59,355 nucleotides of DNA from Candidatus Altiarchaeota archaeon (lineage in GTDB: Archaea > Altiarchaeota > Altiarchaeia > IMC4 > SCGC-AAA252-I15), in assembly GCA_041306075.1 (NCBI GenBank), contig JBFYKH010000079.1, forward strand, positions 1-59,355, given 5' to 3'. The notes under the pieces are model-generated. The model worked only from the letters and a program-made list of their open reading frames with translations, was not told the DNA's origin and did no database searches. A program made the position numbers and the translations under genes. Shown piece after piece: positions 3,132 to 28,249 of the stretch (position 1 is its first letter; each line of letters opens with the position of its first letter).

Positions 3132-3364
3132 TAGAGTACGTGCTCATGCTCTCTGCGGTCCTGGTGGCCGCGGCGTCGCTGTACCCGAAGGACCTGATGA
3201 AGGCGGTCATAATCTGCACGGGCATAGAGGGCCTCGCGCTCGCCGCCTTATACCAGGAGCTACTCGCCTCCGACGCCGCCCTGACGCAGGCGGTCGTCGC
3301 CGCCACCGTCCTGCCCGGCATATTCGCCATAGCGGTCTACAAGACGGGGAGGTGGGAGGAGTGA
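3128..3364 (+). CDS. ehbD: Ehb membrane subunit D (DUF4040-like)
   Basis: GTG start overlapping previous stop; A.DAALTQAVV motif (APDVAxTQA family). Confidence 0.75.
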   Translation: MIEYVLMLSAVLVAAASLYPKDLMKAVIICTGIEGLALAALYQELLASDAALTQAVVAATVLPGIFAIAVYKTGRWEE

Positions 3365-7285: not shown

Positions 7286-8429
7286 CGGCAAGCTCACTGA
7301 AGTCGACGTGGGGACGGTCCACCCGGTCCTCATAGAGCCATTCAGAATCAGGTTCTGGGTGGAGGACGAGACCGTCAGGGACTGCGAGATAACGTACAAC
7401 GCCGCCCACAGGGGCATAGAGCGGCTCCTCGAGGGCATCGCCATAAAGAAGGCGCACATGATAGTGGAGAAGGTCTGCGGCCTCTGCAGCCACTACCACC
7501 TCTGGAACAGCATCAGGGTCACTGAGAAGGCGATGGACCTGGAGGTCCCGGAGAGGGCGCAGTACGTGAGGGTCCTCATCGCCGAGCTTGAGCGCATCCA
7601 CAGCCACCTCTTCTTCATCGCCCACGGCTGCGAGACCATAGGGCAGGAGACGTACACGTACCGGGCCTTCGCGCTCAGGGAGCCGGTGATGAGGATGCTC
7701 TACGAGCTCACCGGCAACAGGGTCCACTACGCGGTCCCCGTGCTCGGGGGGGTGAGGCCGAGGGCGGACCCGACGAAGGAGACCATGGACAGGATTAATC
7801 CGATGCTGAACACGCTCGAGCGCGACCTCAAGGGCTTCGTGGAGCGGGTGACGACGGACCCGCTCGTGATGAGCAGGCTCGAAGGCACGGGCATACTGGA
7901 CAGGGGGGTCGCGGAGGAGCTGCACGCCGTCGGGCCGACCGCGAGGGGCTCGGGCATCAACAACGACGTCCGCGAGCAGATGCACGAGTACGAGGACTTC
8001 AACTACAAGACCATAGTCCTGTCGGGCTGCGACAACAAGGACAGGATACTCGTCCGCGGCCTCGAGCTCTTCGAGAGCATGAACATAATACGGCAGGCGC
8101 TCGACGAGATGCCGGCTGGCCCCGCCTACTTCACCCCGAAGATGAAGCTGGACACAGAGTTCGCGACCACCTACATCGAGGCGCCGAGGGGTGAACTCTT
8201 CCACAGCCTGAGGGTGGACGCGCAGGGGAAGGCCCGCAACTACAGGATTAGGACTCCGACGCCGCCTAATCTCGCCTGCATGGAGAAGGCCGCGGTCGGA
8301 GACCAGCTGACCGACGCGATGCTCACCATAATCAGCTGCGACCCCTGCCTTTCATGCTCAAGCCGCGCCACCGTCGTGGAGGACGGCAGGGAGAGGCTCG
8401 TCGAATTCAAGGAGGTCGGGAAATGCTGA
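7278..8429 (+). CDS. ehbN: Ehb [NiFe]-hydrogenase large subunit (group 4)
   Basis: L1 EKVCGLCSHYH and L2 DPCLSCSSR Ni-binding motifs; EAPRGE; RIRTPT. Confidence 0.9.
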   Translation: MASGKLTEVDVGTVHPVLIEPFRIRFWVEDETVRDCEITYNAAHRGIERLLEGIAIKKAHMIVEKVCGLCSHYHLWNSIRVTEKAMDLEVPERAQYVRVLIAELERIHSHLFFIAHGCETIGQETYTYRAFALREPVMRMLYELTGNRVHYAVPVLGGVRPRADPTKETMDRINPMLNTLERDLKGFVERVTTDPLVMSRLEGTGILDRGVAEELHAVGPTARGSGINNDVREQMHEYEDFNYKTIVLSGCDNKDRILVRGLELFESMNIIRQALDEMPAGPAYFTPKMKLDTEFATTYIEAPRGELFHSLRVDAQGKARNYRIRTPTPPNLACMEKAAVGDQLTDAMLTIISCDPCLSCSSRATVVEDGRERLVEFKEVGKC

Positions 8430-9395: not shown

Positions 9396-9674
9396 ATGCC
9401 GAAGATAACAGTGGAGAGCGGGATGGTTTTGAACCTAGGGGGGTTCATCGTAGAGAGGAAGGCGAAGCTGCCGTGCGTCGACGTGGTCCTCGGCAACCCG
9501 CTCAGGCAGGACGTGAAGGTCAGGGCCCCGATATACAGCCAGGGGATGCTGGACGACATGGCGGCCCAGGGTCTGATAATCGAATACATAAACGAGGGGG
9601 ATACCCTCAAGGACAAGCTAGACAGTGTGAGAAGGAGGGTCGAGGACGCCCTGGGCAAGCCCCCGGCCCCGTGA
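9396..9674 (+). CDS. ehbP: Ehb subunit P
   Basis: NLGGFIVE...GNP...KV.APIY pattern recalled for EhbP; last gene of operon. Confidence 0.7.
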   Translation: MPKITVESGMVLNLGGFIVERKAKLPCVDVVLGNPLRQDVKVRAPIYSQGMLDDMAAQGLIIEYINEGDTLKDKLDSVRRRVEDALGKPPAP

Positions 9675-20082: not shown

Positions 20083-21852
20083 ATGTGCGGGATAGCGGGT
20101 TACGTGGGCGGCAGGAACGCGCCGGTGGTCTTGTTCGACATGCTCAGGTGCCTTGAGTACAGGGGCTACGATTCAGCCGGCATCGCCTACATGGAGGGCG
20201 GGAGGATACGTATTCCGAAGGACAAGGGCAGGGTCGACGAGGTCCGGGCGAAACTGAAGCCAGAGGCCCTGAAAAGCAACATAGGCTTCGGCCACACCCG
20301 GTGGGCGACCCACGGGGCCCCCACCCAGCTTAACGCGCACCCGCACGCGGACTGCACCGGAGACTTCGCGGTGGCGCACAACGGCATCATCGAGAACCAC
20401 GCGGAACTGAGGGGGGAGCTTGAGGGGAGGGGGCACGAGTTCAAGAGCGAGACCGACACCGAGGTTATAGCCCACCTCCTGGAGGACTACTATGACGGCG
20501 ACCTCCTGGACGCGTTCGCGAGGGTCCTCGACAGGCTGAGGGGCAGCTACGCCCTGACCGTGATGTCCACGCACGAACCGGACAGGATACTCGTCGCGAG
20601 AAACGAGAGCCCGCTCATCGTAGGCCTCGGCAAGGGCGAGAACTACGTCGCATCCGACGCCCCGGCCTTCATAGCCCACACCAGGGAGGCGGTCATACTC
20701 GGCGACATGGAGTACGGCCTCGTCACGCGCGAGCGGGCCGAGTTCTACAGCCTCAAGTCCAGGGCGAAGATAAAGAAGAGGCCGGAGACGATAACATGGG
20801 ACGTGAAGGAGGCCGAGCGCGCCGGATACCACCATTTCATGCTCAAGGAAATCCATGAGGAGCCCCAGGCCGCGGCGAACGCGGTCAGGGACATGGAAGG
20901 CATAAGGAGGGTGGCGGGGAGGCTCGCCTCCTGCAGGAGGCTGTATTTCGTAGCCTGCGGCACCGCCTACAACGCCGGACTCTACGCCAAATACGCGGCG
21001 GAGGCCTTCGGCATCCAGGCCGAGGCGTCCATAGCCTCGGAGTTCAGGTACTCAACAGTCGAATCGGTCGGCGACGACTCTGGAGTCGTCGTGGTATCGC
21101 AGTCAGGGGAGACCGCGGACACCATCGCGGCCGCCAAGGAGGCGGGAAGACGGGGCGCTTACGTGGCCGCCGTCGTCAACGTGGTGGGCTCAAGCCTCGC
21201 AAGGTGCGCGGACGACGCCGTGTTCACCGGCTCCGGGCCGGAGATAGCGGTCGCGTCGACGAAGGCGTACATAGGCCAGCTCGCCTGCCTGGCGGCAGTC
21301 GTCCTGGAGCTCGCGAAGGCGACGATGAAGGCCGACGGGAAAACGTATGACGCCCACGCCGCCGAGCTCAGGAGCCTGAAGCCGAAGATTGAGGAGGCCC
21401 TCAAGGGGGCCCACTTGAGGGAGCGCGCCGAGGAGGAGGCGAACACGCACACCTTCTTCTTCGTGGGCCGCAGGGAGAATTATCCGACCGCGCTCGAGGG
21501 GGCGCTGAAGCTGAAGGAGATAACGTACGTGCACGCGGAAGGCTACGCCGCGGGGGAGCTGAAGCACGGCCCCCTCGCAGTCATGGGCAGGGACGTCACT
21601 GTGATAGCGGTGGTCCCGGACGGGCCCCTCCGGGCGAAGGTCGAGAGCAACATCGCCGAGATCAGGGCGCGGGGGGCGAAGGTCATAACCGTCGGCTCGG
21701 ACGGGGACTTCCGGGCCCCGAAGACGCTGCCCGCGTACGCGCCGATACTCAACGCGGCCCCCCTCCACCTCTTCGCATACTACATAAGCGTCCTCAAAGG
21801 CCTCGACCCGGACAAGCCGAGAAACCTCGCGAAGAGCGTCACGGTGGAGTGA
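20083..21852 (+). CDS. glmS: Glutamine-fructose-6-phosphate transaminase (isomerizing)
   Basis: MCGIAG start, YRGYDSAG, HTRWATHG, SQSGETADT, ELKHGP, C-terminal PRNLAKSVTVE. Confidence 0.97.
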   Translation: MCGIAGYVGGRNAPVVLFDMLRCLEYRGYDSAGIAYMEGGRIRIPKDKGRVDEVRAKLKPEALKSNIGFGHTRWATHGAPTQLNAHPHADCTGDFAVAHNGIIENHAELRGELEGRGHEFKSETDTEVIAHLLEDYYDGDLLDAFARVLDRLRGSYALTVMSTHEPDRILVARNESPLIVGLGKGENYVASDAPAFIAHTREAVILGDMEYGLVTRERAEFYSLKSRAKIKKRPETITWDVKEAERAGYHHFMLKEIHEEPQAAANAVRDMEGIRRVAGRLASCRRLYFVACGTAYNAGLYAKYAAEAFGIQAEASIASEFRYSTVESVGDDSGVVVVSQSGETADTIAAAKEAGRRGAYVAAVVNVVGSSLARCADDAVFTGSGPEIAVASTKAYIGQLACLAAVVLELAKATMKADGKTYDAHAAELRSLKPKIEEALKGAHLRERAEEEANTHTFFFVGRRENYPTALEGALKLKEITYVHAEGYAAGELKHGPLAVMGRDVTVIAVVPDGPLRAKVESNIAEIRARGAKVITVGSDGDFRAPKTLPAYAPILNAAPLHLFAYYISVLKGLDPDKPRNLAKSVTVE

Positions 21853-21920
21853 CTTCGCGAGGGTCCGAAGGAGCCGTGGCGACTGAGGCAGACTTGGCCA
21901 AGAGCGTCACTGTAGAATAG
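21823..21920 (+). repeat. Imperfect direct repeat of the glmS 3' end
   Basis: 21823-21852 (NLAKSVTVE*) vs 21891-21920 (DLAKSVTVE*); 21/30 nt identical. Confidence 0.9.
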
Positions 21921-21925
21921 GCGTC

Positions 21926-22564
21926 TCAGAGCCTCATAGTCTTCAGCTTCCCCCTGAGCTCGCGCAGCCTATCCCCGCGGATGACTGGCCCGTGGCCTGG
22001 GATTATCTCGTCCGCCGCGGCGAATATCTTCTTCATGGAGTCCAGGTATTCGCGGGGCAGGGGGTACTTCTTCGGCACCTCCCCGCCGTCTATCACGCTC
22101 TCCCTGACCGCGTCCCCGGCTATGACCACCAGCCCGCCATCAGTCTTGACCGCCACTGCTATGTGCTTTTCCATGTGTCCGGGCGTGTCCATGAACGAGA
22201 CCCCCGCGATGCCCGGGTCCGTCACGCCCGGGAACATCTCGACCCTGTTGCCGTCCTCGACATGCCAAACGGACGTGGGAGTGTAGATGACGGCCTTCGC
22301 GAAGAGGTAGTTGTTGTATATGTGGTCGAGGTGCATGTGGGTGTTCACCACCGTGTCGATGCCAGCGGGCTTCAGGCCGCGCTTCCCGAGCTCGGCCACG
22401 ACGACGTCGGCGTACCCCATGGCCCCCGGGTCGACGATGACGTTCCGGCCAGGCGCCCGCAGGAGGACGACTGCGCTGCAGCAGGCATTCGACACCTTGA
22501 GGCCGCCGTCCATGACGTCCACCCTAGTGCCCTCCCTGAGCACGTCCACCGCCGGGGCTTTCAC
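21926..22564 (-). CDS. MBL-fold metallo-hydrolase
   Basis: VDPG, THMHLDH, TPGH, AGDA, PGHG. Confidence 0.9.
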   Translation of the reverse strand: MKAPAVDVLREGTRVDVMDGGLKVSNACCSAVVLLRAPGRNVIVDPGAMGYADVVVAELGKRGLKPAGIDTVVNTHMHLDHIYNNYLFAKAVIYTPTSVWHVEDGNRVEMFPGVTDPGIAGVSFMDTPGHMEKHIAVAVKTDGGLVVIAGDAVRESVIDGGEVPKKYPLPREYLDSMKKIFAAADEIIPGHGPVIRGDRLRELRGKLKTMRL

Positions 22565-27436: not shown

Positions 27437-27526
27437 GCCTGCTGGCACGGGATTCGCCGACGCCTCCGGACAGGTTAGGCCGCGCGGAGGTTTATAACCG
27501 GGTTCCGACTACTATAGTTGGACGCC

Positions 27527-28249
27527 ATGGACTACAGGAGCTTCGAGGACGGGGCCGACAGGGGATTCTTCTGGTTCCTGGCGAAGGAACGCCTCATCGG
27601 CGCCCTATTCAAGAAGGCTCTGCCGCACCCTACGGCGGACTCGAGGGTGCTGGACGTGGGCGCCGGCATGGGCGAGGACGTGCCTGCCATATCCGCGGCC
27701 GGCCGGGTATACGCCATCGACGTCAGCCAGAACGCCCTTGACGCGATACCGGACGGCCTGGTTGCCGAGAAAAAGCTCTGCGACGCCGGCCGGATAGGAT
27801 ACCCGGACGGCTTCTTCGACACTGCCGTGGCCTTCGACGTACTGGAGCACATAGAGGACGACGTCGCGGCAATAGGGGAGATAAGGCGGGTGCTGAAGCC
27901 CGGGGGCCACTTCGTCTTCACAGTCCCGGCCTTCGACTTCATCTTCAGCGCCCACGACAAGGCGCTGCACCACCACAGGAGGTACGGGATGGGGGGGCTG
28001 TCAGGGAAGCTGGACGGCTTCAGGAGGATTGAATCCGGGTACTGGATGTGCCTGCTCTTCGTCCCAGTGGCGATGATGAGGCTCCTGAAGAGCGGTGAGA
28101 AGACGCCCCGCTCGGAGGGGATGCCGCTGCCGAAGTGGGCGAACGCGCTCCTTTACAGGATTGCGTCGGCCGAGACCCGGCTGATTGCCGGGGGCGTGAG
28201 GCTGCCGATAGGCCTGACGATATACGGGATTTACCGGAAGAATGCCTGA
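27527..28249 (+). CDS. Class I SAM-dependent methyltransferase
   Basis: VLDVGAGMG, FDVLEHIEDD, LKPGG, VPAF...S.HD...HH.RRY. Confidence 0.9.
   Translation: MDYRSFEDGADRGFFWFLAKERLIGALFKKALPHPTADSRVLDVGAGMGEDVPAISAAGRVYAIDVSQNALDAIPDGLVAEKKLCDAGRIGYPDGFFDTAVAFDVLEHIEDDVAAIGEIRRVLKPGGHFVFTVPAFDFIFSAHDKALHHHRRYGMGGLSGKLDGFRRIESGYWMCLLFVPVAMMRLLKSGEKTPRSEGMPLPKWANALLYRIASAETRLIAGGVRLPIGLTIYGIYRKNA

Follow-up and report, generated by a model that had tools for sequence, protein, structure and literature searches.

The stretch analysed here (the window, 59,355 nucleotides (nt) of contig JBFYKH010000079.1 from a Candidatus Altiarchaeota archaeon) carries glmS, the gene for glutamine--fructose-6-phosphate transaminase, and immediately behind it a second, recoded copy of the end of that gene. 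The encoded protein belongs with homologues that combine Pfam GATase_6/7 and SIS domains and are named Altiarchaeota GlmS, its best-named relatives coming from Candidatus Altiarchaeota/Altiarchaeales. Copy 1 (AAC CTC GCG AAG AGC GTC ACG GTG GAG TGA) is the real end of glmS and supplies the working C-terminus of GlmS; copy 2 (GAC TTG GCC AAG AGC GTC ACT GTA GAA TAG) follows at an offset of 68 nt, is separated from copy 1 by a spacer of 38 nt, and has its stop codon 5 nt from the end of a convergent gene for a protein of the metallo-beta-lactamase (MBL) fold (Table 1). A sequence-only reading of the window had reported this repeat of the glmS end, and both its coordinates and its sequences are exactly right. 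The copies are identical at 21 of 30 bases, with an identical core of 11 nt (AAGAGCGTCAC), and the nine differences also fall as that reading had counted them: eight are silent, if the exchange of one stop for another (TGA to TAG) is included, and one replaces Asn by Asp. When nine random substitutions were introduced into copy 1 by simulation, at most one amino acid change together with a preserved stop was obtained in 2e-5 of the trials; the resemblance of the copies is therefore not due to chance, and copy 2 has been recoded rather than randomly diverged, as had been proposed. A search for LAKSVTVE in all six frames of the window, allowing up to two mismatches, returned copy 1 and copy 2 as its only matches. 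The window has a G+C content of 62% and contains no tRNA genes.

Table 1. Features around the end of glmS (positions refer to the window; aa, amino acids), and the arms of hairpin 1 in the window and in four other lineages.
Feature	Position	Strand	Details
glmS	20083..21852	+	glutamine--fructose-6-phosphate transaminase, 589 aa; begins MCGIAG; stop TGA at 21850-21852
Copy 1	21823..21852	+	nine last sense codons and stop; AACCTCGCGAAGAGCGTCACGGTGGAGTGA = NLAKSVTVE, stop
Hairpin 1	21825..21862	+	spans the stop codon; CCTCGCGAAG (21825-34) pairs with CTTCGCGAGG (21853-62)
Candidate small open reading frame	21849..21920	+	23 codons; MTSRGSEGAVATEADLAKSVTVE, stop; GTG overlaps the glmS stop (GUGA); ends with TAG in copy 2
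Spacer	21853..21890	+	38 nt; conserved non-coding module: 3' arm of hairpin 1 and hairpin B
Hairpin B	21865..21888	+	CC-GA-AG-GA-GC / loop CGUG / GC-GA-CU-GA-GG (RNAalifold)
Copy 2	21891..21920	+	GACTTGGCCAAGAGCGTCACTGTAGAATAG = DLAKSVTVE, stop; -1 frame relative to glmS
Convergent MBL-fold gene	21926..22564	-	212 aa; Pfam Lactamase_B 6e-16; syntenic in relatives
Hairpin 1 arms, window			5' CCTCGCGAAG / 3' CTTCGCGAGG
Hairpin 1 arms, L100			5' CCTCGCCAAA / 3' TTTGGCGAGG
Hairpin 1 arms, L181			5' CCTCGCAAAA / 3' TTTTGCGAGG
Hairpin 1 arms, L178			5' CCTCGCTAAG / 3' CTTGGCGAGG (U-G wobble)
Hairpin 1 arms, L001			5' CTTGGCGAAG / 3' CTTCGCCGAT

The same arrangement is found in a sister species (L081; protein P0002), whose GlmS is 91% identical and which is represented by four independently assembled contigs (ENA, JGI, Logan). 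The window and these contigs are syntenic over ~20 kb and share the gene order V-type ATPase operon, CBS, DHDPS, glmS, two convergent MBL-fold genes, Metallophos and ribosomal proteins, and the gap between glmS and the MBL gene measures 73 nt in the window as well as in all four sister contigs. Because four independent assemblies have the same architecture, the tandem arrangement is not an assembly artefact of the window contig, and because the sister species shares it, the duplication predates the split of the two species. Between them copy 1 differs at only two positions, both synonymous, and copy 2 of the sister species (GAC CTC GCC AAG AGC GTG ACC GTC GAG TAG) again reads DLAKSVTVE and stop. 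The identical core shared by the two copies, 11 nt in the window, is only 5 nt long in the sister species and covers all 30 nt in the more distant lineage L100.

The first 10 nt past the glmS stop exactly complement the Leu-Ala-Lys codons of copy 1, so that the two form the arms of hairpin 1, to which minimum free energy folds add an inner stem (GUCAC/GUGAC) with the stop codon within its 3' side. Eight to ten of the ten pairs are present in seven of 12 Altiarchaeota lineages, including L001 and L178, which have only one copy of the glmS end (the arms of L001 were worked out by hand). Across lineages the pair at the Ala wobble position appears as G-C, C-G, A-U and U-G, that is, the 3' arm follows the synonymous codon choice. 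The U-G wobbles on the plus strand of L001 and L178 favour an RNA of glmS sense, with the caveat that the single mismatch of L081 would be a wobble on the opposite strand. At least nine pairs are expected at a random site with a probability of 0.002, and since the modal score among 71 other glmS loci is 4 of 10, hairpin 1 is a feature of this clade of Altiarchaeota. A stop-spanning hairpin was also seen at one bacterial glmS (L023:11801-11847, Haliangium sp.), where the Leu-Ala stretch CCTGGCC pairs with GGCCAGG just 3' of the stop; it scores 30.6 bits with our covariance model of the structure (R1) and may reflect convergence.

The remainder of the spacer folds into hairpin B, in which steps of two base pairs are parted by two tandem G.A/A.G internal loops and which shows two compensatory pairs in L100 (C-G to U-A and G-C to C-G). 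Over four lineages 92.5% of the combined structure is paired, against no more than 47.5% in slid controls, and four of the pairs have changed on both sides. The spacer thus displays the covariation by which a conserved structured RNA is recognised, in a small sample of four to seven lineages. Its identity to the window is 77% in L181 and 67% in both L182 and L100, free of indels except for small length differences in L182; for these lineage pairs synonymous third positions have reached saturation (about 0.5) and promoter regions are not alignable. Being more conserved than saturated synonymous sites, the spacer is under constraint. Furthermore, model R1, in which L182 is not included, recovers L182 at 49.6 bits. 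The spacer sequence is unique within the window, and a search of 21700-22050 on both strands against Rfam 15 gave zero matches up to E = 10. No site resembling an intrinsic terminator was found in 21853-21925, hairpin 1 not being followed by a T-run. The idea that the spacer arose by decay of a duplicate of the codons ahead of copy 1, which would point to a longer tandem duplication, was rejected, local alignments being no better than those of shuffled sequences (p = 0.57-0.97). The CTTCG...CGAAG stem with which the sequence-only reading had the spacer begin is indeed present (21853-57 / 21866-70), but it is not kept in the relatives.

The alignment of glmS downstream regions across related genomes, which that reading had proposed as a check, was extended to 12 further lineages, read or inferred, with GlmS identities of 65-75% and star-like relationships (L001, like the locus L054 described below, comes from a scan of a genome collection with GlmS that returned mostly distant bacteria). 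Besides the sister species, three more distant lineages, L100, L181 and L182, have the 68-nt period with a homologous spacer. L100 has two copies that agree at all 30 bases, the contig of L181 stops 7 nt into copy 2, and L182 retains the spacer next to a copy 2 that has decayed with indels. In P0005 and P0007 glmS is followed by gaps of 70 and 78 nt. Seven lineages (P0003, L180, L178, L001, L085, L086 and L183) have one copy, a state seen only at GlmS identities of at most 75%. For instance, only 6 nt lie between glmS and the MBL gene in P0003, and in L180 the convergent MBL gene runs into glmS from the opposite strand, sharing its last 14 nt (3236-3249). As copy 2 occupies the position of the glmS end of P0003 and L180, it is copy 1 together with the spacer that looks like an added 68 nt. 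A protein search with the 95-aa tail of L100 returned short fragments only. Two of the one-copy junctions are altered in other ways: in L086 (5808-7896) three open reading frames (ORFs) of 191, 77 and 396 aa without significant Pfam match are inserted between glmS and the MBL gene, and in L085 (5757-7538) a 593-aa unknown gene replaces the 212-aa MBL gene and overlaps the glmS end.

Elsewhere, tandem glmS ends are by no means rare. A strict pattern of two glmS ends 30-60 nt apart was matched by 16 metagenome contigs with G+C contents of 44-73%; this pattern forces the last seven codons to be intact, so that its recoded pairs (L093, L094) are unusable as a test of selection. Others of the 16 are plain arrays of identical or near-identical units: four units with a 35-nt period (L087:756-890), at least seven with a period of 54-55 nt (L095:1-350), three or four with a 75-nt period (L092:4553-4870), and an array of identical units in L102. 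The arrays of L087, L095 and L092 directly follow a full glmS and are minisatellites seeded by the gene terminus; by G+C content and GlmS tail these contigs look bacterial. Since such simple arrays are common, the glmS terminus evidently duplicates readily. The metagenome contig L099 (1907-1995) has two glmS ends 71 nt apart that are identical except for the last base of the stop (TAG and TAA), and its spacer contains CGCGAGG, complementary to the Leu-Ala codons; because this segment adjoins copy 2 and not copy 1, the locus varies the architecture seen in the window. A scan of viral contigs for the glmS-end motif yielded 75 matches, 73 of which were full-length glmS or cut by the locus edge and two of which were short fragments; one of these two, the viral contig L120 (190-307, IMGVR_UViG_3300044951_002702), carries an isolated glmS 3' fragment of ~30 codons (ending in DVDMPRNLAKSVTVE and stop) with the rest of the gene absent, which could be an att-type piece of an element targeting bacterial glmS. 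In a Candidatus Micrarchaeota contig (L054:7081-9670, JAZDHB010000062.1) glmS is followed by an AAA_14-DUF4143 ATPase gene, a degenerate end (DPPRNRAKSVTIE and stop, at 8393), an unknown 368-aa gene and a third, likewise degenerate end (GMAKSVAVE and stop, at 9640); with its segments of ~1.2 kb the locus gives the impression of repeated insertions into the glmS terminus, although no recombinase is seen there.

Such loci bear out the sequence-only reading where it called glmS ends integration hotspots, in that duplications and insertions recur at these 3' ends. Its main proposal, that the repeat in the window is itself a scar of glmS-targeted integration (by a TnsD/Tn7-like element or an integrase) or a duplicated target site, is not supported here. 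Tn7 inserts ~23-25 bp past the glmS stop and duplicates 5 bp of target, and the repeat described here instead measures 30 nt and runs from an Asn codon to the stop, which does not fit a duplicated Tn7 target site. Between the copies, where islands, TniQ/TnsD homologues or recombinases had been suggested as a thing to look for, there are 38 nt without cargo, recombinase or any ORF of their own. A screen of ~21 kb around glmS, made on the annotated genes up to ~10 kb to each side in the syntenic relative and not covering the other parts of the 59-kb window, found no recombinase, integrase, transposase or TniQ/TnsD. Both flanks consist of host genes whose synteny is conserved; downstream these are two MBL-fold genes, Metallophos and ribosomal proteins, and neither tnsABC, tnsD/tniQ nor transposon ends occur among them.

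Site-specific integration of an element that carried its own glmS end (attP) could nevertheless have taken place in the past, with copy 1 as a hybrid attL, copy 2 as attR, and the body of the element later deleted; or the 68-nt unit could be a gene-less mini-element mobilised in trans. Integration of this kind classically leaves a direct repeat of the gene end in recoded form, the 11-nt identical core could serve as crossover site, the palindromic a/a' arrangement recalls a recombinase site, and the 68-nt unit occurs patchily over the star-like GlmS phylogeny. Loci with inserted genes can be added, that is, the Micrarchaeota locus, which belongs to another archaeal phylum and has glmS ends around its ATPase cargo, and L086 with three unknown ORFs at the very same junction. 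Nonetheless, we regard an integration scar as unlikely. Quite apart from the absence of enzymes and the syntenic flanks, the identical core amounts to only 5 nt in the sister species, all four sister contigs carry the unit without presence/absence polymorphism, and a 68-bp circle is implausible as a recombination substrate. The 3' arm of hairpin 1 perfectly matches copy 1, the supposed host half, and is present in one-copy lineages too, which identifies it as native 3' untranslated region (3'UTR) and not as element DNA. Moreover the unit is old, its 68-nt period recurring in the sister species as well as in distant lineages, and its spacer is structured rather than debris of an element. Synonymous similarity to L181 and L182 rises slightly in the 3' part of glmS, which would suit an integration, but the rise is marginal and there is no divergence boundary around the unit; recent import by recombination was likewise rejected, since a sliding divergence window against the sister species showed neither dip nor boundary there. 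One survey of archaeal Tn7-like elements lists tRNA genes, nrdD and a methylase gene as attachment sites and does not mention glmS, and our literature search returned no description of glmS-end duplications or glmS-targeted elements in archaea.

Does copy 2 itself do anything? Between the window and the sister species it differs at six sites, all six of them synonymous, and a neutral model assigns such an outcome a probability of 5e-5 to 2.5e-4; for comparison, 5 of the 38 spacer positions differ, and divergence in other intergenic regions is ~12%. The neutral-model figure has to be discounted, because the window copy was ascertained as intact and only one to three of the six changes fall on the sister branch (changes were polarised against copy 1 and L100), and because the wobble positions of copy 2 coincide with those of a minus-strand frame that runs past the MBL stop. 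When all inferred changes are considered, at most one of at least seven is non-synonymous (probability ~0.004 under a neutral expectation of 70%), and copy 2 remains coding-competent across lineages old enough for synonymous saturation. This pattern of substitutions suggests that copy 2 is under constraint. It is also dispensable, since it has decayed in L182 and been lost in many lineages.

A constraint of this kind could stem from translation. The sequence-only reading had itself named, as an outcome that would refute it, a copy 2 that ends an unrecognised overlapping ORF, and an ORF of 23 codons does overlap the glmS stop and run to the end of copy 2. The 23-codon candidate small ORF (sORF) of Table 1 might be read by termination-reinitiation after the ribosome has opened hairpin 1, releasing a free peptide that mimics the GlmS C-tail, or, as a variant, an occasional -1 slip near the glmS end might re-attach the C-tail; a tryptic peptide of the sORF product would be GSEGAVATEADLAK in the window and GPGGAIATEADLAK in the sister species. 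In addition to the six synonymous differences, this proposal has on its side the open frame, the GUGA overlap and the 68-nt period without indels in the window, L081 and L100, all of which end in GAG-UGA, one-copy lineages using TAG or TAA; and hairpin 1 would mask the start until glmS is translated, a classic layout for coupling. Set against it, L181 has the module but ends in GAA-TAA (AUAA) without a GUG, and the frame of L182 contains an in-frame stop and leads into a decayed copy 2. The 14 N-terminal codons are not codon-like, their variable sites being distributed over the three positions as 6/6/7 in four lineages (hand tally). A GUG or AUG overlap arises automatically from GAG/GAA-TGA, and the -1 frame is not enriched among tandem-end loci. 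The two reservations about the neutral model, ascertainment of the window copy (which reduces the independent test to one to three changes) and the minus-strand frame past the MBL stop, apply here too, and the slippage variant lacks a conserved slippery heptamer. Copy 2 is thus most likely untranslated, and we consider the sORF quite improbable.

Three ways of joining or overlapping copy 2 with a reading frame were rejected. A programmed -1 frameshift would need a conserved slippery heptamer (X XXY YYZ) 5-9 nt ahead of a stimulatory structure, and the sequences upstream of hairpin 1 (CCG AGA AAC, CCC AGG AAC, CCA AGA AAC) share none, nor is the linker codon-like. Read-through of the glmS stop in frame 0 meets another stop after 8 codons in the sister species and does not reach copy 2. 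An extension of the MBL ORF over copy 2 encounters a UGA 5 nt before copy 2 in both species and is not protein-like outside copy 2. Finally, glmS could be joined to copy 2 at the RNA level, through a 68-nt bulge-helix-bulge (BHB) intron or a ribosome bypass like that of T4 gene 60. The exactly conserved length of 68 nt, the stop codon inside a hairpin, the matched codons of both copies and the restoration of the reading frame upon removal of 68 nt are all in keeping with this idea; but either process would yield the same protein as simple termination, with no gain, and copy 1 is itself conserved as coding sequence, so that we attach hardly any probability to it. A scripted scan of three lineages over all frame-restoring lengths, which asked for a 4-bp central helix, two flanking helices and 3-nt bulges, gave no conserved BHB candidate; the best case at 68 nt has the 4-bp helix and at most two flanking pairs.

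At the other extreme, the repeat could be a functionless relic, a chance tandem duplication fixed long ago whose copy 2 is decaying, its coding look being due to chance, ascertainment and occasional conversion, with hairpin 1 alone as a real and generic element. Its decay in L182 and absence from seven lineages would follow naturally, as would the N-to-D change as some non-synonymous drift; tandem arrays of identical glmS ends arise often elsewhere (L087, L092, L095, L102), and the evidence for constraint is modest once the ascertainment of the window copy is allowed for. We still think a mere relic improbable. The 28 nt of spacer past the hairpin arm are 67-77% conserved without indels in spite of saturated synonymous sites, hairpin B shows compensatory changes, and, as calculated above, too few of the changes in copy 2 are non-synonymous (probability ~0.004).

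What can be said firmly is that the feature is real, non-random and older than the species. At its heart is a structured 3'UTR, specific to the clade and not described before, to which the codons of the GlmS C-tail contribute a part. For the whole we propose a combined reading, to which we give about an even chance of being correct: an ancient duplication of the gene end, a structured 3'UTR, and an untranslated pseudo-terminus maintained by exchange with copy 1. Accounting for the pieces in this way, we infer a tandem-duplication origin, a role of copy 2 in an alternative helix, and recombinational maintenance. An old duplication of the glmS terminus, common to the clade, would have left two copies that bracket a folded 3'UTR, in which hairpin 1, formed by the Leu-Ala-Lys codons of copy 1 and the 10 nt past the stop, is followed by hairpin B and then by copy 2. 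Whenever something such as a terminating ribosome covers the last codons, copy 2 would capture the 3' arm of the hairpin, and the competition between the copies would result in two mutually exclusive helices. Of the ten positions of this arm, copy 2 can pair with all in L100, with nine in L081 and with eight in the window, and folding with the copy 1 arm blocked is predicted to give this second helix in L081 and L100. Gene conversion, or collapse with copy 1, may keep copy 2 in register and coding-like; either form of exchange could impose indirect purifying selection on the rest of copy 2, and collapse would leave one copy, as in P0003 and L180. The identity of the two copies of L100 is consistent with conversion, and a copy 2 that has escaped exchange with copy 1 would decay, as in L182.

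Several observations weigh against this combined proposal. Copy 2 of the window pairs with the arm at only the 8 positions just given, and its blocked fold takes another structure. Had the duplication been a plain tandem one, another spacer would be expected behind copy 2, and none is seen there. Pairing with the arm would explain only why about the first third of copy 2 is conserved and leaves the wobble-only changes of its 3' part unaccounted for, and gene conversion alone does not predict differences that are synonymous only. The module is present in only four or five lineages, and because it was lost or truncated in many others, any function it has must be dispensable. One further step would be to see in it a translation-coupled device at the end of an archaeal glmS mRNA, either a ribosome-operated switch or the coupled 23-codon sORF, a possibility we rate as low. 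In the former case the pseudo-terminus and the real terminus might compete for the arm and thereby set the fate of the mRNA 3' end or the expression of the convergent gene; in the latter the product would be a free copy of the catalytic C-tail of GlmS that modulates the enzyme. If such a device exists, it would be the first cis-regulatory element described for an archaeal glmS. A constrained copy 2 would be either a C-tail mimic peptide or the competitor strand of an RNA switch, each a new kind of element, and even a relic would show that recoded gene-end repeats arise and persist without a mobile element, a point of importance for pipelines that take such repeats for att sites.

Away from glmS, the window (27518-28249, plus strand) has a 243-aa ORF with motifs like those of S-adenosylmethionine-dependent methyltransferases (VLDVGAGMG..., LKPGGHFVFTVP); it lies within an insertion of ~820 nt between the L7Ae and PfkB genes that is absent in the sister species L081.

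Among known systems, the closest in position is attTn7, where TnsD recognises the conserved 3' end of glmS (PMC4046053). The same universally conserved C-terminal coding segment is involved here, and the idea of a recognition that tolerates wobble changes carries over. Unlike attTn7, however, our locus has no Tn7-like gene or transposon end, consists of a 30-nt repeat with a conserved 38-nt spacer, and resides in an archaeal host. A second likeness is to integrative islands, which are flanked by attL/attR repeats of gene 3' ends, either of tRNA genes or of protein genes such as trmE in the case of SGI1. As in these, there is a direct repeat whose upstream copy completes the gene and whose downstream copy is the displaced, recoded end, and the Micrarchaeota locus with cargo between its ends resembles them too. 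In contrast to such islands, the Altiarchaeota unit has no cargo, integrase or presence/absence polymorphism, and the sequence between its repeats is a conserved host RNA structure that is partly present in one-copy relatives. With the terminal minisatellites of L087, L095, L092 and L102 it has in common that a gene end is repeated head to tail past the real stop, but here recoding has set the two copies apart, no second spacer follows copy 2, and the unit has outlasted deep splits between lineages.

In its RNA aspect the module is reminiscent of trp-type attenuators, ermC-type translational attenuation and the stem-loops of intrinsic terminators, with a strong stem-loop at the end of an ORF and a second sequence that pairs with the same arm, so that the position of the ribosome could choose the fold; it differs from these in lying at the 3' end rather than in a leader, in having no U-tract, and in being archaeal. 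In bacteria glmS is both a textbook case of RNA-based control, by a ribozyme and by small RNAs, and a safe-harbour site for mobile DNA; to our knowledge nothing comparable has been described for archaeal glmS. The glmS ribozyme and GlmY/GlmZ resemble the element described here as RNAs on or acting on the same gene, but they act on the 5' side in bacteria, and our region has no counterpart in Rfam. Tandem glmS termini recur in diverse, bacterial-looking metagenome contigs. The known kinds that are varied here are thus gene-end duplications and 3' stem-loop elements: an Altiarchaeota clade keeps a folded 3'UTR whose first helix is built from codons of the essential C-tail of GlmS, and several of its lineages also keep, just behind it, a second in-register copy of these C-tail codons.

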